Made by a program: the position numbers and the translations under genes. From the IMG/VR virus record IMGVR_UViG_3300032231_000014, positions 1 to 32,162 of that record: a stretch of DNA of 32,162 nt. One strand, given 5' to 3'. Below the pieces are notes generated by a model. That model searched no databases. It saw only the letters and a program-made list of their open reading frames with translations, and had not been told where the DNA came from. The stretch comes from a virus (taxonomy: Duplodnaviria > Caudoviricetes). This document shows, in pieces, positions 338 to 23,915 of the stretch (positions are counted from its first letter, which is position 1; each line of letters opens with the position of its first letter).

Positions 338-942
338 CAGGGGCTGCCGGGATCAGATGTCCACGAGCCATCAAGCAATGCTGCTCCTGAGCCCGCGACG
401 CCAAGGTAAACCTGATTCCCGACCGATGCCGTTCCTGCTCCCCATGGGAGGACTGAGGGGACGGTGAATTGCGGCGACACTGGGTTGTCGTTCGCTATGA
501 GGCTGATGAACCAGCCGCCTCCGTCCAACTCCACGTACAGGCAGTCAAAGTTCGCATAGTTCACCGCCGTCTCTACGGCGATGGATAGCTCCCCCGTGGT
601 CGGGGGGACTGCAACTGTCGTGTTTTCGGAATAGCGAAGATCCAGCGGAGAGGCCGGGCAACCAGCAATGACCTGCTGCTCCCACTCCTCAATCGTCTGA
701 TACTCGCCAGTCGGGATCGACAATTCTGGAGAAGGTCTCCAGAGCGCCACGGCATCATCTGCAGGAACTGGGATCTCCTGAGGATGTCGCGGCTCATACC
801 AATCTGGATGCACAAGCAACCCGGGGATCTGACCATCTTCGACCAGATCCCGATACCGCATTTTCTGGCCGGAGCGCATACATTCCGCTATGGCATTCTT
901 GCCCTGTGCGTAGCGCCTCCGCCTGTGCCTCGTAGTGGTCAC
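337..942 (-). CDS. Putative virion protein
   Basis: Coupled to both neighbours; N-terminal YAxGKxAIAECxRSG...GLLVxPDxYEPRHPQ block resembles proteins that follow the adaptor in this type of head module. Confidence 0.7.
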   Translation of the reverse strand: MTTTRHRRRRYAQGKNAIAECMRSGQKMRYRDLVEDGQIPGLLVHPDWYEPRHPQEIPVPADDAVALWRPSPELSIPTGEYQTIEEWEQQVIAGCPASPLDLRYSENTTVAVPPTTGELSIAVETAVNYANFDCLYVELDGGGWFISLIANDNPVSPQFTVPSVLPWGAGTASVGNQVYLGVAGSGAALLDGSWTSDPGSP

Positions 943-1652
943 CGTGCGCGCCTACCTCGTCTGAATCGGTATGAAGCTGCCGGCACTATCGTCACGTCCG
1001 CTCTCACCCGCTGTGAGCCGTTGGCATTGTCGAACGCATCATTGGCCCGAGCGATCAGTCGCGGAAGGATAGGCTCTGGAGCGAACTTCTCACCGAGGAA
1101 TGCAGCCAGCCCAGAGGCGAAAGCCTCGCGCATGTAGTACGGGATGTCTGGCTCGTTGGAAGCAAAGCCAGCATCCTGATGCTTGCGCATCACATCCATG
1201 GTCAGCGTATCGGTACTGTTCTCAGGCACCGGCCAGAGGCTGATGACCACGGAGCTGTCGTTGCGCTTGTCAGCGAAATACCGACTCGGGCGACCTTGGG
1301 TATCCTTCTCAGGAATCTCCAGCCACTCGTCTCGGGCCATCGGGTACAGCGTGGTCTCAACGCCTGCGCGCTTGAGCATCATGCCGTTGATGTCGATGAT
1401 CCGGCCATCGGTGTCAGGATCGACCGTGTACTCCTGCGTCCCCTGCACGAGGGCGAAGTCGTTCACCCGGTCTATCCGGTAATCTTGGTTATCCTTGGTC
1501 GCCCAGTACGTCAGCATGAGGTTCATGCTGCGACGCGCACTGATCAGGTGAGACGCAGCAAGCGATGCAGGATCAACCTTGCATCGCTCGAATGCCTCGT
1601 CCACCATCTCAGCGAGATCAGGTGACCAGAGGTAGGTCCCACTGGAGGGCAT
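939..1652 (-). CDS. Putative head-tail adaptor / head completion protein
   Basis: 237 aa; position after MCP; helical N-terminus (LAEMVDEAFERC...ARRSMNLML), LVQGTQEY and GRPSRYF...LWPVP motifs typical of adaptor proteins. Confidence 0.65.
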   Translation of the reverse strand: MPSSGTYLWSPDLAEMVDEAFERCKVDPASLAASHLISARRSMNLMLTYWATKDNQDYRIDRVNDFALVQGTQEYTVDPDTDGRIIDINGMMLKRAGVETTLYPMARDEWLEIPEKDTQGRPSRYFADKRNDSSVVISLWPVPENSTDTLTMDVMRKHQDAGFASNEPDIPYYMREAFASGLAAFLGEKFAPEPILPRLIARANDAFDNANGSQRVRADVTIVPAASYRFRRGRRAR

Positions 1653-2543: not shown

Positions 2544-3455
2544 TTAGCTCGCGCCGCTCGAACCGAATGCACCACGGTAGTCGGACCAGCCGAAGCTGTA
2601 CCGCTCACGCGCCTTGTAGCGCATGTTGCCCGTCTCGAAGTCGCCCTCTACACCACGCTGGATGTTCTTCCGCACAAAGTGCTTCAGACCGTCCATTGCA
2701 TCGGTGATCAGGAACCACGCATTCGGGTCCGTCAGGCGATGATTCTCGAAGGATCCACCGGGGACCTTGCCCTTCGACTTGAGCGCGTTCACGTCGTTGT
2801 CAGCAGTGCCGGGGCGATACTGACTGGCCATGATACGCTCTGAGACGAAGCCCAGATCAGACGGAGTGATCAGCCGCAGAGGCGTGGCAGCAATGTTGAT
2901 GCCTCGCTCATCGACCCACTTGGAGATCTGGATGCAAGCCTCTTCGAGAGAGGTCTCGCTCAGGTCCGCCTGAGTGGTGAACGTATTGGACTGAGTACCA
3001 CCACCCCACAGAGGGTGAGCAGTGGAGAACAGCGGCACGTTGTCACCGCCCGGGAAGGCAGCGTTGAAACCGTTGTTCAGGATGGCAGCGCCTTTGACTT
3101 CCTTGGTGTGAACCATGGAACGAGCCAGCGCCTTGCTGTACTTCGATCCAAGGGAACCGTAAAGGTTGTCTTCTTCCGCTTCTTCCGTGAGCGCGAATGC
3201 CAGAGCAATCGTCTCGTGGTTGTAGCGGGAGACGTATGCCTCACCACCGGAGTCGTAGGTGACCGGAGCGCCCTCAGGCTTGACCGGAGCACCCGCCAGA
3301 CCGGCGAGCAGTACGTCTTCTTCGTACGCTTTCTCTGAAGACTCGACCTCGAAGATCGGCTTCCATTCCTGAGCGTAGCGCTTGTACTCCATCCCGAAGA
3401 CGGTGTTGAGCCCCTCTTGGAGCTGGCGACGGAAAGTCGCGCGATTCATAACCAT
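2544..3455 (-). CDS. Major capsid protein (HK97 fold, Mu gpT-like family)
   Basis: 303 aa from ATG 3455 with AGGGGAG SD; motifs LQEGLNTVFGMEY, KPEGAPVTYD, KALARSMVHTKE, LFSTAHP, DFETGNMRYKARERYSFGWSD; position after the scaffold. Confidence 0.9.
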   Translation of the reverse strand: MVMNRATFRRQLQEGLNTVFGMEYKRYAQEWKPIFEVESSEKAYEEDVLLAGLAGAPVKPEGAPVTYDSGGEAYVSRYNHETIALAFALTEEAEEDNLYGSLGSKYSKALARSMVHTKEVKGAAILNNGFNAAFPGGDNVPLFSTAHPLWGGGTQSNTFTTQADLSETSLEEACIQISKWVDERGINIAATPLRLITPSDLGFVSERIMASQYRPGTADNDVNALKSKGKVPGGSFENHRLTDPNAWFLITDAMDGLKHFVRKNIQRGVEGDFETGNMRYKARERYSFGWSDYRGAFGSSGAS

Positions 3456-5839: not shown

Positions 5840-6217
5840 TTAGACCAGTTTCTTGCGGTACATCTCCGGGTCAGCGACACCGGCCAGAATGTGATCGTCG
5901 TTCATCAACTGAAACGTACGACCATCGGCCAGCTCGATGCGCTGTGAGCCATATGTCGGATAGAGCACCCAGTCCCCAACGGCAAAGCGGGAGTCATCGA
6001 ACTTCTCCCCCTCGAACGCCTTGGGACCAACCGCGACGACCTGACCCACCTGATTCACAAACTCCTGATCACGCTGCACTTTTTCAGTGAACACGATCCC
6101 CACTTCCGATTCTTCCTTCGGTTGAAGCGGCCTGATCAGCACCCGCCAGAGGGTTGGTGCCGGTAGCTCGGCCCTGATCTCCTCGACCGGGGGCTTGAAC
6201 TTGGTCTCTCCGCTCAT
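5840..6217 (-). CDS. GroES/Cpn10-like co-chaperonin
   Basis: PxPTLWRVLIRP...GIV...GQVVAVGPKAF...VGDWVLY..YGSQ...LMNDDHILA matches the GroES pattern. Confidence 0.88.
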   Translation of the reverse strand: MSGETKFKPPVEEIRAELPAPTLWRVLIRPLQPKEESEVGIVFTEKVQRDQEFVNQVGQVVAVGPKAFEGEKFDDSRFAVGDWVLYPTYGSQRIELADGRTFQLMNDDHILAGVADPEMYRKKLV

Positions 6218-12495: not shown

Positions 12496-15135
12496 TTACA
12501 CCGCGATGGTGTCTTCCTGTCGTACCGCCGTGATCGTCACCGAGCTATCACCGATAGTCTGGTTCAGCGAGAAGGGCAGAATCACCTTGCCCTGCCGCAC
12601 TTCAACCACCACATCGAAGTCCGCACCCAGTTGCTTCACGAAGCTGTTGGACTCAGTGCCCGGAGAGCCATCCGTACCAGTGTCCTCTTCAACGTCGAGG
12701 ATGAGGTCGAACAGATCGTCCGTGTTGGCGTAGGTCTGGATCAGACGGTTGATGATGTAGGTGTCGGTGCTATCCCAGTCGTCCGGGGTGCCGTACAGAG
12801 CCCTGACCAGCAGGGTGTCGTTCGACGTGAGTCCGGTCGTCGCGAAGCCCGTCACCTCCCACACGTGAGTCGTCTTGCCGAGCGTGGTGTTGCGCACCAG
12901 CATCCCCACCTGAACACCGTCAGTCAGGAAGTTCCTGCCATCATCCACGAGCTGGGTTGCACTGGAGCTGGCTGTCGCCGTTCCCGTGTTACCGCCCGTC
13001 AGGGTGATCAGCGAGAACTCGCCAGAGGCCACCTTTGTCACCGCATCGTAGTAGTACCTGTGCTCTTCGATCAGGGAGTTTTCTTTCACCCTCACCACAG
13101 AGGCGTCAGGCACCTCAGAGTCAATGGTCCCCGCCACGCGGATGGTGTCGTCGTCTTGGTTGTTGAAACCCAGTCCAGCCGTGGCCATGCCACCGAACTG
13201 ATCCCGGTTGATTACACCAGCCGTACCGTTGTCCCGAGCCACCATGATGCGGTCGCCCGCGCGGGTGTTCTGCACCGCCACCGAGATGGTGTTGGGCGGG
13301 TTCAACGGAGTGGCCGAGTTGTCCGGCGTTGCTGTGTACGCCTGCGTGTCTGCAGGTGCAGGGTTGACGATGATCACGCCCCGGCTCAGGAAGAGCTGGG
13401 AGCCCGTGAACGTGCCCAGAGGCGACTGCTTGCTCACCGTGTAGCGCTGGATGCCCAGTGTGCCACCGGCATGGATCGTCACGTCCCGGACACCATCACC
13501 GCCCTCGTCAGACACCAAATCGTCATTGGCAGGCTGAGAGGTCGTCAACGAAGTCTGGATGTCCATCATGACGATGTAGCTCGGCACCGAGTCAGCCGGC
13601 GTAGTGTTCTGTGCCGTCAGTCTCGCCGAGAAGCCAGCCCGAGCCGTGATGCTCAGATCCTCGCCATCATTCATGGTGGAGGTGTTGGCGTCGTACTCGA
13701 ACGTACCCTCGTTGCCGCGATAGGTCTCGCCCGGGACATTGGTGCCCGCGCCGAACAGATCGGCCGCAGTAGCCCCTCGTCGAGTCGCCCACTTGAACCG
13801 CTCATAGACCTTGGCCACCGGGACCAGACTCTGAGCATTCGCCGTGACCGAGTAGTTCTCGTTGGTGCCGTCACCGTCGAAGTCCACGTTGGTCACTGCA
13901 CCAAGAGCCAAAGTGACCGTGCCACCCTCGCCCGCGCCAGCATCGGTCGGCCCACCAGAGGTGTCCGAGACCACGTTGACCGTCGCCGCTCCATCACCAT
14001 CTGCAGCCGCGACATAGTCGTACTCGGTGATGGTGTCAGAGTTGGCAAAGTCAGTGAGGTCGCCTACCGGGTAATACTGAATCGTGATCGTCGGGTTGGT
14101 GCCCGAGACCGCCGTGATGATCCCCTTCTTCGTTGCGCTGGCAAAGTCGAGCCCCACGTAGAAGCCGTTGCCCACGTTGAACGTGCCAGACGACGAGGTC
14201 GTGGTGAACGTCCGGTAGCCAGTCGTGTTGTTGAGGTCTGGCTGGGAGGCCAACGGGAGAGCCGAGAAGCCACCACCAGATACGTTCAACCGGAAGTTGT
14301 CGTATAGAGCCGTGTACTGTCGAGCAAATACCTCAAGGTCACCGTCAGCAATCAGGCTACCGTTCACCTGTACCTGCGTGACAATGCTGATGATCCCCAG
14401 CGATACATTCGGGTCCGTGTCCCACCACTGGAAGGTGTTGGTGGCATGGTCAGACAGCTTGATCCGATTCTGAACCACGTACACCTCAGTGGCTGTGGGC
14501 ACAGAACCAATCGCCTGAATGGCTGGTGCCAGCATAGAACCAGAGCCGCCGTTGGAGCTGGAGTCAACCGAGCCCGTGCCGCCCGTGGCGATCAGGGTGC
14601 CGGTGCCATCGAACAGGTCGCCCGTAACCGGGGTCGAGTCGTCAGGTCTGATCCATGCGCACAGAGAGCCGTCTTGGTCGATGTCGAAGTCCAGCAACGT
14701 GCCGGTGTCGCCTGAGTCGCCCTGCGTGACTCGCCGACCAATGTCGCCTGCAGCGAAGTCGGTGCCCAGCCCTACCACGTAGTTGATCTTGATCACCCCG
14801 TGGCCGGCAGTGTCATTGTCAGGTCCAACAGTCTTCAGCGCCCAGTTCGCCGACCACGCGCCCTCCTTCAGCCACTCCATAGAGGAGCGCGGCATGAAGT
14901 AGTCGTTGGCCAACACGAACGCATTCGGCGTCGTTGGTGTCGCCGGGTTCTTGAAGGTCATTGCTTGGAAGTAGGAGGCGTTCTCAGCAATTGCCGAGTA
15001 GATCTCCAATGATTCGCGCACTGGACCGCTAATGCGCTCCACTTTGCGTAGCCCTGCCTGCCCGGCCAACTGATTGACGTTCTCGTCGTCGAACGAGATG
15101 CGCCAGTCACCGCCGAGGATGTCGAGTGTAGTCAT
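12496..15135 (-). CDS. Large putative structural (fibre/appendage) protein
   Basis: 879 aa, Thr/Gly/Asp-rich, beta-rich with internal repeats; GAGGT SD. Confidence 0.8.
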   Translation of the reverse strand: MTTLDILGGDWRISFDDENVNQLAGQAGLRKVERISGPVRESLEIYSAIAENASYFQAMTFKNPATPTTPNAFVLANDYFMPRSSMEWLKEGAWSANWALKTVGPDNDTAGHGVIKINYVVGLGTDFAAGDIGRRVTQGDSGDTGTLLDFDIDQDGSLCAWIRPDDSTPVTGDLFDGTGTLIATGGTGSVDSSSNGGSGSMLAPAIQAIGSVPTATEVYVVQNRIKLSDHATNTFQWWDTDPNVSLGIISIVTQVQVNGSLIADGDLEVFARQYTALYDNFRLNVSGGGFSALPLASQPDLNNTTGYRTFTTTSSSGTFNVGNGFYVGLDFASATKKGIITAVSGTNPTITIQYYPVGDLTDFANSDTITEYDYVAAADGDGAATVNVVSDTSGGPTDAGAGEGGTVTLALGAVTNVDFDGDGTNENYSVTANAQSLVPVAKVYERFKWATRRGATAADLFGAGTNVPGETYRGNEGTFEYDANTSTMNDGEDLSITARAGFSARLTAQNTTPADSVPSYIVMMDIQTSLTTSQPANDDLVSDEGGDGVRDVTIHAGGTLGIQRYTVSKQSPLGTFTGSQLFLSRGVIIVNPAPADTQAYTATPDNSATPLNPPNTISVAVQNTRAGDRIMVARDNGTAGVINRDQFGGMATAGLGFNNQDDDTIRVAGTIDSEVPDASVVRVKENSLIEEHRYYYDAVTKVASGEFSLITLTGGNTGTATASSSATQLVDDGRNFLTDGVQVGMLVRNTTLGKTTHVWEVTGFATTGLTSNDTLLVRALYGTPDDWDSTDTYIINRLIQTYANTDDLFDLILDVEEDTGTDGSPGTESNSFVKQLGADFDVVVEVRQGKVILPFSLNQTIGDSSVTITAVRQEDTIAV

Positions 15136-19248: not shown

Positions 19249-19779
19249 TTAGATTTTCCCGTGCGCGGCAGTGAACGCTGTGCAGATCAGCGCTCGCCTG
19301 CGAATTCGGCCAATAGAGGGGCGAACTCCGTGAAGGATTTTCCCATCGACCAGCACACCGAAAGTCGGGATACACGAGATGGTGTGAATTTCGTTCGCTA
19401 CGTCGTCGTGGACGGTCGTCTCGCCACCCTCTTCAGGACAGGAGACGTAGAAGATCAGTGTGCGTCCATGGTCCCAGCCATGACGATGCGGGAAGCCCTG
19501 CACCCAGTTGCGAGTGGCGTCGGTGCGACTCTGCTCGTCGAGGACTGAGATCCACCACTTGTAGCCTGACGCCGGGTAGCCCAGCTCCTTGAACACGGAC
19601 TTGGCCCAATCCTCGAAGCCAAGCTCTTTGGGCGGCGGGCGCTCCATAGTGTGGGCACCCTGCACTCGATCATTGTTGATCTTGGCCCACTCTTCGTCGA
19701 TGTAGTTAGCCATAGCCTGCAGAGGAGCGTCGTCCCAACGCACCTCGGTGTAGAGCGGAGTTGCCTTCACCAGTTCCAT
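19249..19779 (-). CDS. Putative 2OG-Fe(II) oxygenase (DSBH fold, HxH variant)
   Basis: PHRH...TLIFYV...EGGET...LVDGKILHGV...RRAL: metal ligands, GG motif, distal His and 2OG-binding Arg. Confidence 0.72.
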   Translation of the reverse strand: MELVKATPLYTEVRWDDAPLQAMANYIDEEWAKINNDRVQGAHTMERPPPKELGFEDWAKSVFKELGYPASGYKWWISVLDEQSRTDATRNWVQGFPHRHGWDHGRTLIFYVSCPEEGGETTVHDDVANEIHTISCIPTFGVLVDGKILHGVRPSIGRIRRRALICTAFTAAHGKI

Positions 19780-19837
19780 ATCGAAGTCCTGTCGAAAGAG
19801 TGCGGGGGCACGTCATGTGCCCCCTGTCTCTGTTAGC

Positions 19838-20530
19838 TCAGGTAGTCCCTCCCTGAGGCGCATCGGCGCTCTTCAGTCCCTCACCCTCATCCACGTCGAT
19901 CTCGTCGGACCCGGTGAGCGTGTAAGCCCTCGGGTTCGCGTCCATCGTGCTGGCATACATGGCAGTGGCGTTTGCGACCGTCTTCATGGTCTGCCCCCTC
20001 ATGCCGGGTGAGAAAGACATTTTGAGTCCAGAGAAGCCTTCCAGTGCGGCCTTCCCCTCCAGACCTTCCATGAGGTACGTGAACAGCCACCTGTGCTGCG
20101 CCTGCTGGTGAGCGATCAGCTCGTCCAGTTTGGCCTTGGTGTACTCAGTGCTCGCGTTCTCTTGCCCGTCAGTGTGGATGATCATCTGCACTGGCCGGCT
20201 GTTGAACTGGAACTTACTGATCACGGCACCAATGGCATCGTAGAGCGGAGTCATGGCGTTGGGGACATAGTCCCTCTCGCTCAGGCGCTTCACTCTGGCT
20301 GGGCTCTCCTTGAAGAGCTTCTCCCTGATGCCGGTGCTGTCGAACGTGTAGAGACTGATGCTCTTGGCGGTCTCCTTCACGTCAGCCACGTACTCATTGA
20401 ATGTAGACACAACGGCCGACTGATGTGGTTGCATCGAGCCGGACTCGTCGAGCACGAATACCACGTCCGGGTGGACGATGGTCTCGGGCCGCAACGGTGC
20501 GCCTATCGGATCGTTGACGATGTCTATCAT
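19838..20530 (-). CDS. von Willebrand factor A (vWA) domain protein
   Basis: MIDAS DxSxS (FVLDESGSM), TPLYDAI, HTDGQENAS; start refined to ATG 20530 with GAGGA SD (230 aa). Confidence 0.85.
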   Translation of the reverse strand: MIDIVNDPIGAPLRPETIVHPDVVFVLDESGSMQPHQSAVVSTFNEYVADVKETAKSISLYTFDSTGIREKLFKESPARVKRLSERDYVPNAMTPLYDAIGAVISKFQFNSRPVQMIIHTDGQENASTEYTKAKLDELIAHQQAQHRWLFTYLMEGLEGKAALEGFSGLKMSFSPGMRGQTMKTVANATAMYASTMDANPRAYTLTGSDEIDVDEGEGLKSADAPQGGTT

Positions 20531-20531
20531 C

Positions 20532-21062
20532 TCAGTTTCCTCGTTGCAGGTTTGCGGGTACTTGCTGGGCCACCAATGCAACTCTTGGTGATCCCTCCCA
20601 GTTGTGGAAGCCGTGTTCCAGCTTCCCGTCGAACACCACAGTCAGCCCCTTGTGAGGTCTCACTACACAGGGCTGATCGAGCGGCTCTCCCCAGACGACA
20701 AGCGGAGCGCCCGCGCCGGGTTCGAGGTAATGCACGATAGACCTGTAGGCATAACCGTGAGTGTGCGGATAACCGTCTGCCCATGCTGTCTCGGGCAGGC
20801 CGGCCATGTGTTTGGTGACCACTGCGTAGAGGTTGATCTCTCCCACCTCTGGGTACGGACCCAGCACCTGCAGGACGTGCTGACGAAACGCGCTCATTGC
20901 CGGCCCGTCCCAGTGGTCAATCACGCAGCTCCCGGGGGAGTTGATGATCGGCACGTGCTCCTGCCTGACCTTGGACATGAGGTCGCCCCACGCATACGCC
21001 GGATAGTCCCACTCGTGAGTGGTTACCATCATCTTGGCATCATGGTAGGGCGCTATGTCCAT
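20532..21062 (-). CDS. Putative 2OG-Fe(II) oxygenase (DSBH fold, HxH variant), paralog of 19249-19779
   Basis: PHTH...SIVHYL...GLTVVFDGKLEHG...RVAL. Confidence 0.7.
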   Translation of the reverse strand: MDIAPYHDAKMMVTTHEWDYPAYAWGDLMSKVRQEHVPIINSPGSCVIDHWDGPAMSAFRQHVLQVLGPYPEVGEINLYAVVTKHMAGLPETAWADGYPHTHGYAYRSIVHYLEPGAGAPLVVWGEPLDQPCVVRPHKGLTVVFDGKLEHGFHNWEGSPRVALVAQQVPANLQRGN

Positions 21063-21807: not shown

Positions 21808-22034
21808 GTCTTTTGGGTAGACCCATGGCTTTCGTCCACCACAAGTAGAGCAGGTCTCATCCCATACAGTTCTTCTATCTCCGCACCCGACACAGTACGC
21901 GGGCTCCTCTCCGTTGTTATGTCGAACGCCAGCCTCTGGAACCCCTCCATGCCGAGCCTGTTGATCAGCTCCTTCTGCCATTCCGGTAGCGGCTCCCCGC
22001 TCACCATCTCCAAGTAAGCCGTCAGCTCCATCAT
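21804..22034 (-). CDS. Mini-protein with terminase/helicase-like Q-motif and Walker B fragments
   Basis: 76 aa; GEPLPEWQKELI and GMRPALLVVDESH; ATGA-coupled. Confidence 0.6.
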   Translation of the reverse strand: MMELTAYLEMVSGEPLPEWQKELINRLGMEGFQRLAFDITTERSPRTVSGAEIEELYGMRPALLVVDESHGSTQKT

Positions 22035-22645
22035 GAGTACGAGAGGGACGCTCTATTGTCCCAGATATTGTCGAAGTTAGTATTGCCGTCCGCCCACTCC
22101 GTTGCGAGGTCATCGTTGCCACCTACGTCTGTCGTCACGGTGATGCGGCTCATGCGCCATACCGCCACGCTTGTCACGCTCCCTGCTGCAGCCTCGCCCT
22201 TGTAGATGATCTGCGGGCTGCCACCCTCATCGTCGATCTGTGTTGCCAGTGTCACTTCACCAATCCTCGAAACGAACGTCCACGTGGTGGGTCCGGTCTT
22301 CTCGTAGATGTCTCCGGCGGTCGTATTGTCCCAATAGGTATCTCCCGGATTTCCAGTCCCCGCACCGGGTGGACCTGCACCCTGAAGAAAGCTGAGCCCA
22401 TCACTGCCATTGACTCCGGGTATGCCGGGTATGCCTTGGCTGCCCTGCTCGCCTGGCTCTCCCTGAGGCCCTGCAGGACCCCGTGGAGGTACTGTGCTGC
22501 CCTCGCCCTCGTCATAGCCCTCCTCATAGGCTCTCCAGCTCCGAGGGACGGTGTCGATGTTGTACGGGTTCTCACGTGGCCTTCCGAACACTCCGTCGTT
22601 GTACCCGGTCTGAAACGCTATACGCTCCTGTCCTGAGTACGCCAT
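22031..22645 (-). CDS. Collagen-like repeat protein with RMF-like N-terminus
   Basis: Gly-X-Y run, then a GxPxxxxGxxGDxYxD..GxxYxK...W motif and a C-terminal YxGEA...VWR...WADG...WDNRASLSY domain. Confidence 0.75.
   Translation of the reverse strand: MAYSGQERIAFQTGYNDGVFGRPRENPYNIDTVPRSWRAYEEGYDEGEGSTVPPRGPAGPQGEPGEQGSQGIPGIPGVNGSDGLSFLQGAGPPGAGTGNPGDTYWDNTTAGDIYEKTGPTTWTFVSRIGEVTLATQIDDEGGSPQIIYKGEAAAGSVTSVAVWRMSRITVTTDVGGNDDLATEWADGNTNFDNIWDNRASLSYS
22397..22480 (-). repeat. Collagen (Gly-X-Y)9 repeat
   Basis: GPAGPQGEPGEQGSQGIPGIPGVNGSDG. Confidence 0.9.
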
Positions 22646-22647
22646 GA

Positions 22648-22839
22648 CTAATTTTCCTGAGCATCAACACTTTGTGGTAACAGCGGCTCCAGTAAGAGCC
22701 TCACTCGCTCTGCTGCCTTCCAGTCGTCGTACAGCCCCCCTCCGCGCTCCACGTCATGGAGCCGCTCCTTGGCCAGCGAGTACAACCTCTGCAGGTCATG
22801 AGAGTCCACCTCTACGGTAGTCTTAGTCGCTGTCGCCAT
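22648..22839 (-). CDS. Hypothetical protein
   Basis: 63 aa ORF filling the operon. Confidence 0.55.
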   Translation of the reverse strand: MATATKTTVEVDSHDLQRLYSLAKERLHDVERGGGLYDDWKAAERVRLLLEPLLPQSVDAQEN

Positions 22840-23044
22840 CTTCGCTCTCTGGTGGTATCAGGATGATCTCTCTTGTCCCGCACTTCATGCACTCGGTCGG
22901 AATGGCCTTGTGCTCCTTTCCCAGCCACGTGGAGTAACTTCGCCCGTCCCACTCTCCGCGTACGCCATCGCTGAGCCCGCACTTATGACAGTCGGCCACC
23001 ACGATATTAGGTCTCTCGTCGCCTTTCTTGCCTATCGCACCCAT
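22823..23044 (-). CDS. Zinc-ribbon protein
   Basis: CHKC...CMKC pairs; TGATG coupling. Confidence 0.6.
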   Translation of the reverse strand: MGAIGKKGDERPNIVVADCHKCGLSDGVRGEWDGRSYSTWLGKEHKAIPTECMKCGTREIILIPPESEDGDSD

Positions 23045-23328
23045 CAGCTCACCTTCACCCGCAGCCAGCCGGTGGGGCCTGGTATGTCTGGGCTGGCCGG
23101 CAGTGTGAATACCCTGGCTGCCACGTTCTCCTTGGTCGCCCGCATCGAGTCAGCAAGCGCCTTACCCATGGCGTCTGAGTACGCCTCTCGGTCATAGGGG
23201 ATCGTTGCGCCCTCTCTCTTGGGTTGAGCCATGCCGAACAGTGCCACGCCGTCGTCATTCACACGGCCCTTGAGCACCCCAGCCACAGCCATGACGCTCA
23301 CACCACGCAGAAATCCTCGCCTATTCAT
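23044..23328 (-). CDS. Twin-arginine-motif mini-protein containing major-capsid-like segments
   Basis: MNRRGFL + hydrophobic stretch; KREGATIPYD and KALADSMRATKE match the window's MCP. Confidence 0.7.
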   Translation of the reverse strand: MNRRGFLRGVSVMAVAGVLKGRVNDDGVALFGMAQPKREGATIPYDREAYSDAMGKALADSMRATKENVAARVFTLPASPDIPGPTGWLRVKVS

Positions 23329-23915
23329 CGGTCCACACTCTCGTCCCAGTCAAATTCCGGCAGATCGAGCGGCGTCTCTCTCACCTTCGTGATCGAACCC
23401 TGCGGGCCTATCGTGTCAGGAGCCACAAATCCCGGCCACAACTGGACCTCCCTGCCATCAGGGAGCTGCGCCCTCACTGAGAAATCGTCCTTTCCCCCCT
23501 TGCCCTCCACATTCTCTACAGAGCATGTCTCTTCCATATCGACCCGCTGGTGTGTCTTGGAGCCGGGGATGCTGTGGATCGAGACCGCATCCTGAGCACC
23601 TTCGACAACAATCCACTCGGTCAGGCTGCCCTCTGCGCGCTTCCTGTTGCTCCATGATGCCCTCGCGGTCATGCGTACGTGGCGTTGCTGGGTCTCGAAG
23701 TCCTTCCACTGCTGGGTCTGGGGCCTTCTACGCCACATGGCGATGGCTGGCTTCTGCCCTTCCACGCGCTCCGTGAGCTGGTGCACAAACTCCGCCAGAT
23801 GCTCATCGGTGTACTCGGTGGGATCGACATCACACACCGCCGTGAAACCGCAGTAGCCGTCCTCAACCTGAGGATCGCCCGCCGCTATGTACCTGATTGC
23901 CAGCCCGTAGATCAT
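23325..23915 (-). CDS. Hypothetical protein
   Basis: 196 aa; ATGA overlaps at both ends. Confidence 0.65.
   Translation of the reverse strand: MIYGLAIRYIAAGDPQVEDGYCGFTAVCDVDPTEYTDEHLAEFVHQLTERVEGQKPAIAMWRRRPQTQQWKDFETQQRHVRMTARASWSNRKRAEGSLTEWIVVEGAQDAVSIHSIPGSKTHQRVDMEETCSVENVEGKGGKDDFSVRAQLPDGREVQLWPGFVAPDTIGPQGSITKVRETPLDLPEFDWDESVDR

Follow-up and report, generated by a model that had tools for sequence, protein, structure and literature searches.

A family of short phage proteins joining a twin-arginine-type leader to pieces of the major capsid protein, with a putative role as anti-defence decoys

The window, that is, the whole 32,162-nucleotide stretch of viral DNA analysed here, encodes a protein of 94 residues (P0001) in which a leader of twin-arginine type precedes two segments related to the major capsid protein (MCP). 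The protein belongs to a family of short relatives that is real, selected and undescribed in the literature searched. From these sequences we propose, as a possible reading that we hold somewhat short of probable, that P0001 is a putative envelope-addressed capsid look-alike, which would bind a capsid-sensing host protein and thereby act as an anti-defence decoy.

The window is a virus record of 32 kb with a CheckV completeness of 46%, and its minus strand carries the large and small terminase, portal and MCP genes (Table 1). A gene for a GroES-like co-chaperonin (5840-6217, minus strand; phrog_3188, E 4e-13) lies between the portal and head genes, and further along the same strand (19249-21062) two ORFs of 176 aa flank a VWA-domain gene; a single very weak Pfam match (E 0.74) hints at a possible 2OG-Fe(II) oxygenase character of these ORFs. 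The MCP shares 53-57% identity with the MCPs of the Pelagibacter phages HTVC023P/027P and the Roseobacter phages CRP-901/902. Its AlphaFold model (pLDDT 63, with residues 39-83 at low confidence) has an N-terminal helix (residues 2-23), two strands (41-47 and 70-76) flanking a long loop, and a helix spanning residues 96-125, the numbering starting at window position 3446 (P0002), three residues past the first Met. A Foldseek search with this model retrieved HK97-fold shells (256 matches at E <=0.001). The loop is therein the predicted E-loop and the helix at 96-125 the predicted spine helix, names which we take from the established anatomy of the HK97 fold and transfer to the predicted model.

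Table 1. Position and description of the MCP gene, P0001 and its parts, and the neighbouring ORFs in the window.
Feature	Coordinates	Strand	Description
MCP gene	2544..3455	-	PF25209, phrog_371; HK97 fold
204-aa collagen-repeat ORF	22031..22645	-	Homologue next to family genes (L173, L204, L197)
Downstream 73-aa ORF	22823..23044	-	Two CxxC pairs; own start overlaps the P0001 stop (TGATG)
P0001, 94-aa gene	23044..23328	-	Twin-arginine leader and two segments probably derived from the MCP
P0001 residues 48-75	23104..23187	-	Predicted helix with segment matching MCP 105-116 (predicted spine helix, 96-125)
P0001 residues 37-46	23191..23220	-	KxEGxxxxYD motif, matching MCP 56-65 (predicted E-loop)
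P0001 residues 26-31	23236..23253	-	DG-x-x-L echo of MCP 135-140; alone too short for significance
P0001 leader, residues 1-22	23263..23328	-	N-R-R-G-F-L-R motif, 11 uncharged residues (9-19), basic residues after; no Cys
Upstream 196-aa ORF	23325..23915	-	No family; own stop overlaps the P0001 start (ATGA)

An earlier, sequence-only reading had described an intact ORF of 94 aa here. The frame is indeed intact, on the minus strand, to which the strand had to be corrected; the plus frame of the same span contains a stop. The overlaps with both neighbouring genes were found as described, and a recount confirmed the two segment matches to the MCP (6 of 10 and 9 of 12 residues identical), joined by 9 residues in P0001 and by 39 in the MCP. 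The short echo between DGVALF and the DNVPLF of the MCP is present as well, but is not significant by itself. The name of a miniature capsid, by contrast, is weakened by the predicted model of P0001, which consists of two helices (4-20 and 48-75) and coil, with a pTM of 0.31 and no tertiary fold. About 50 of the 300 MCP positions are covered, the A-domain is missing, and the complete A and P domains for shell formation are absent from this two-helix model of 94 aa. No PHROGs family was found for P0001 and Pfam returned only a sub-threshold Tat match, no family of either database covering the body of the protein; a search of solved structures by sequence gave nothing at E <0.3, and all matches in the ESM Atlas were below 0.9. 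Promoter and terminator scans were at chance level. As for the surroundings, homologues of the 204-aa collagen-repeat ORF were found by tblastn in L173, L204 and L197 (67% across 204 aa, 55% across 205 aa and 64% across 47 aa), so that this neighbourhood appears to be shared with the three loci. The N-terminus of that ORF, fused to the collagen repeat, has a weak match to ribosome modulation factor (PF04957, E 0.002, below the cut-off).

The likeness of P0001 to the MCP was marginal by pairwise alignment and clear by profile. BLASTP gave an E value of 0.007, and the pairwise score was reached by 86 of 5000 shuffled sequences with gap costs of 11/1, by 5 of 5000 with 10/0.5 and by none of 5000 with 8/0.2. 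Against a profile of 58 MCPs, P0001 scored 13.3 bits (best of 2000 shuffles, 6.6), and its body without the leader scored 12.9 bits against a profile of 90 MCPs, a score reached by none of 5000 shuffles (best 4.5); the MCP of the window is itself included in both profiles. Among the 454 frames of the window, only the MCP and P0001 scored against the 90-sequence profile (E 0.0018; next 2.1). Profile-profile alignment (hhalign) gave 98.4% and an E value of 8.6e-15 over 53 columns, with a deletion of 30 columns. On the predicted MCP model, the pieces fall in the E-loop and the spine helix, in support of the assignment proposed in the sequence-only reading, the loop region being modelled at low confidence. 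Overall, these comparisons support the view that the P0001 body derives from an HK97-fold MCP.

It had also been claimed that most of the shared residues use different codons. This did not hold, since 14 of the 19 use the same codon, with 9.5 expected from the codon usage of the window (P 0.018, for segments picked after the fact). Because the virus's own MCP gene comes only 8th of 90 in DNA identity across the P0001 segments, seven other MCP genes being as good or better, the excess does not prove that the own gene was recently copied; it is a trace of the origin of P0001 from the capsid clade of the MCP. The excess, the marginal pairwise score and the similar N-R-x-x-F pattern at the MCP start would all fit the decay of a duplicated capsid gene to a remnant, or else a chance likeness, the RR coming in either case from the MCP N-terminus (N-R-A-x-F), an explanation that we judge very improbable. 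It is opposed by the profile significance, by the 158 relatives described below and by the purifying selection acting on them. Moreover, a second Arg is present in 0 of 90 MCPs and none of 152 leaders scored above -0.9 bits against the MCP profile, observations on which the leader was rejected as a copy of the MCP N-arm, and 23 relatives carry an N-arm-like piece separate from the leader. Remnant or chance is thus largely excluded.

No relative of the window gene with both >60% identity and available DNA was found, and dN/dS therefore describes the relatives, not the cargo of the window gene. Among 25 relative gene pairs with >60% identity, dN/dS was 0.12-0.55 in 22, dS being saturated in the other 3; these values are not near 1, which argues against a decaying remnant. 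Over seven gene pairs, pN/pS was 0.25 in the leader and 0.44 in the cargo, both far below 1, and purifying selection on the cargo was supported by a Fisher p of 2e-15. The leader of the window gene, compared with four other leaders, gave pN of 0.13-0.25 and pS of 0.61-0.71. In the relatives, both leader and cargo are under purifying selection.

The family emerged from a phmmer search with P0001, whose 10 matches were P0001, seven short relatives and two long proteins with repeats (PKD and fn3), the latter dropped as unrelated. With two profile rounds it grew first to 53 and finally to 158 proteins, 36-210 aa long (120 listed), in which the combination of RRxF and MCP fragments recurs. RRxF lies within the first 20 residues of 152 of the 155 short proteins examined, and 133 of these 152 score at least 10 bits against the MCP profile, through the cargo and not the leader, although there is some circularity in such counts, leader and motifs both having been in the search profile. 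The three proteins without RRxF are P0056, a true MCP that is truncated, and two that begin past the leader position. Two less biased checks agree with this picture: a blind tblastn of the relative P0015 against 50,697 phage records had 18 matches, 17 of them on MCP genes of the window's MCP family, and of nine short MCP-like ORFs found in the loci by the MCP profile alone, which were not targets of the search pattern, seven have the leader.

At least two capsid pieces are present in 78 of the 152 relatives, and in 51 of the 78 they are out of MCP order. The spine helix was the most frequent piece (106 relatives), followed by the YxxxTY strand (77), the E-loop motif KxEGxxxxYD (64), DGxxLxxxxHP (54), which is a longer version of the DG-x-x-L echo, the N-arm (23) and the SLE helix (16). 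The patchwork draws, in varying order, on six parts of a single capsid family. No piece of at least 5 bits was found beyond MCP position 180 in the 152 proteins, with weaker or locus-only exceptions in P0011, P0013, L057 and L086, and the A-domain core of the MCP is largely omitted by the family.

The distribution of these genes is patchy. Three queries showed no separate miniprotein gene in cultured phages, and nothing was returned by tblastn of P0001 in annotated phages, by the single-sequence locus search with P0001 in viral contigs, by alignment A4 in GTDB genomes, or by the leader DNA pattern in viral contigs and the leader alignment A5. Matches in genome bins numbered 13 and were spread over many phyla. 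Among ten virus records at least 90% complete, chosen through their MCP, the gene was present in four, in one of them leaderless, and absent in six. In the full-text literature, with most subscription papers outside its scope, no description of Tat-leader capsid-fragment proteins was found.

The leader bears out the Tat-like NRRGFL and hydrophobic N-terminus first noticed: the RR motif is present and TIGR01409 is matched with 18.4 bits, above its curated cut-off of 16.7, while PF10518 is matched with 13.4 bits, under its cut-off of 22.7. TIGR01409 was also matched at E <=1 by 27 of 46 aligned members. The uncharged stretch of 11 residues in the window protein compares with 9-22 across the family and with at least 13 in 113 of 152 members, 13 being the length threshold of TATFIND. 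No Cys occurs at positions 10-35 (lipobox) in 155 proteins; AxA occurs 10-30 residues past the RR in 113 of 152, as expected anyway in Ala-rich leaders. A second hydrophobic stretch was seen in none of the 152, and the median charge of the cargo is -3. Like Tat signal peptides (TIGR01409/PF10518), P0001 has an N-terminal RRxF, a hydrophobic stretch and a hydrophilic passenger, and among the 9 matches of the leader DNA pattern, five were ordinary genes of bacteria with a twin-arginine leader. Unlike those signal peptides, it is encoded by a phage, its hydrophobic stretch is short, and its passenger is a short capsid patchwork, predicted to be unfolded, instead of a folded enzyme. Since tatA was found in 0 of 39 records searched (the control matched in 11 of 14 genomes), export would need the host Tat. 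Co-export of a bound partner protein by Tat is known. The Tat pathway tolerates small unfolded hydrophilic cargo, according to the available part of a review (PMC13673990). A preprint on HFTV1 deals, in its available part, with a host Tat fimbria and was set aside as not relevant.

The leader might itself be the working part, occupying or jamming the host TatBC or disturbing the membrane, with the cargo as hydrophilic filler taken from phage genes. Consistent with this are the stronger constraint on the leader than on the cargo, the persistence of some DNA likeness to MCP genes, and the nearly identical leader found on unrelated cargos, 14 of 152 relatives scoring <7 bits to the window's MCP family. 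Nevertheless, the cargo is itself under purifying selection and keeps MCP-conserved positions while the linkers vary (the choice of motifs being partly circular), most cargos stay capsid-like, and leaderless capsid pieces persist as well, so we regard this explanation as quite unlikely.

The cargo is modular. Two paralogues with different pieces occur on one contig in several loci, in tandem in L085, L091 and L173 and a few kb apart in L086, L088 and L090. In L173, one of the tandem genes contains the spine helix plus an A-domain helix and the other the E-loop motif, both upstream of the homologue of the window ORF at 22031-22645; the single gene of the window merges what L173 splits over two genes. 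The same leader precedes a piece of a different MCP family in P0051 (phrog_1328, E 1.6e-8), and in a weaker case the second leader gene of L057 is best matched by the gene that follows the MCP of that locus (E 0.006 among 2477 ORFs). The first suggestion, mimicry of the MCP of the phage itself, is weakened by the ranks of the own MCP as a match for nine genes, from 12th to 85th of 90 (57th for the window) in a ranking set biased to the window's clade; the cargo therefore follows clade-conserved motifs and not the own capsid. This patchy, paired and reshuffled occurrence is an accessory pattern typical of conflict genes.

Several further arrangements were observed in the loci. In L057 (1451-2935, plus strand), three fragment-like genes in a row lie ahead of the portal region, namely, a leader with a piece resembling the after-MCP gene, a leader with C-terminal and N-arm pieces of the MCP, and a leaderless ORF with an MCP piece. 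Tandem genes with the window-type leader lie in L177 (135-796, minus strand); one cargo is related to P0051/P0053, of the other MCP family, and the second has a GIDLA-like motif that, we presume, recalls a terminase nuclease motif. Leaderless short ORFs with a piece of the spine helix and one of the MCP C-terminus occur in L224 (342-536, minus strand) and L086 (4941-5189, plus strand). Near the family gene of L197 there is a second twin-arginine gene (802-1323, minus strand), with a cargo weakly like the N-terminus of the window ORF 12496-15135 (E 0.017). The MCP-bearing contig L221 (354-1949, minus strand) has an RRGFLK leader within a frame of 531 aa, followed by approximately 470 residues of low charge, possibly a virion protein, so that here the leader sits on a protein of full length, and L223 (167-970, plus strand) encodes a phage protein of 267 aa that starts with an RRSF leader and has no MCP likeness.

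Alternatively, P0001 might bind capsid subunits or assembly factors by mimicking inter-subunit contacts and so modulate head assembly, either by tethering the assembly of its own procapsid to the membrane or as a poison of co-infecting phages that are related to it. The kept pieces (N-arm, E-loop and spine helix) are contact elements; in the available part of a P22 study, the E-loop is salt-bridged to the neighbouring subunit's spine helix (PMC5957328). The motif order of the window recurs in 27 relatives, which join exactly the E-loop and spine-helix motifs, 23 of them with 8-9 residues in between, a spacer that, measured in this way, is 11 residues in the window protein and 41 in the MCP. 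In addition, the genes share the strand of the head genes, and ten family loci also hold the large terminase. A precedent is the Ccm of SaPIbov5, which is likewise capsid-derived and has a non-standard role, redirecting the assembly of the helper capsid, according to the available part of the source (PMC8569155). Ccm, however, is a near full-length capsid homologue on a satellite, whereas P0001 is a 94-aa mosaic of fragments with an export-type leader, encoded on a contig with its own terminase, portal and MCP. We consider a role in assembly unlikely, though deserving of weight, as the cargo lies no nearer to the own MCP than to those of relatives, six of ten near-complete relatives lack the gene, the pieces and their order are freely variable, a poison of related capsids would strike the own MCP too, and export would take the protein from the site of assembly.

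The anti-defence decoy would work as follows. P0001 would be expressed late through translational coupling, and its leader would be recognised by the host TatBC, leading to docking at, or carriage across, the membrane. The cargo would present short clade-conserved capsid motifs, and a host sensor reading such motifs would bind it and be neutralised by membrane tethering or co-export, away from the real MCP; the swappable, reordered cargo would then constitute an arms-race repertoire. Lit is a capsid-sensing defence system. According to the available parts of two sources (10.64898/2026.01.04.697583; PMC13728456), the MCP also triggers Avs7/8/10, Dsr1, CapRel-SJ46 and Thoeris, and such defences would supply a selective reason for a capsid decoy. 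The patchy, paired and reshuffled occurrence of the genes, and the tuning of their cargo to conserved motifs, also speak for this reading. Avs7/8/10, however, are described in the available part of the former source as binding the folded A-domain of the MCP via an extended interface (10.64898/2026.01.04.697583). Compared with the HK97-fold MCPs of HTVC023P-like phages (PF25209/phrog_371), to which its two segments are homologous in the E-loop and spine helix, P0001 lacks the A-domain and any predicted fold and has an added leader. A decoy for the characterised Avs7/8/10 is thus weakened, and because the A-domain is barely sampled by the family, the target of a decoy would be another, motif-reading sensor. 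Three points also bear against a decoy: a capsid peptide could equally trigger a sensor instead of blocking it, the uncharged stretch of 11 residues is short for a Tat signal, and three leaderless pieces persist (L057, L086 and G006). In the available parts of the literature on phage anti-defence sponges and mimics, neither a capsid-fragment decoy nor a Tat-linked anti-defence protein was found.

A broader version of the decoy reading, which we regard as conceivable but unlikely, is that tailed phages possess a general cassette in which a Tat tag with interchangeable copies of conserved epitopes of virion proteins captures cytoplasmic pattern-recognition proteins, the host Tat pulling them to or across the membrane. 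If so, the repertoire of cargos would chart which capsid features are read by bacterial immunity. Bacterial immunity has one of its main triggers in capsid proteins, which a phage can alter only with difficulty, and a selected, modular family of capsid pieces with an export tag would represent counter-defence, or else assembly control, of a new kind, and it would be the first case in which mimics made by a phage bear Tat-type tags. The genes are small (70-130 aa) and therefore cheap to test.
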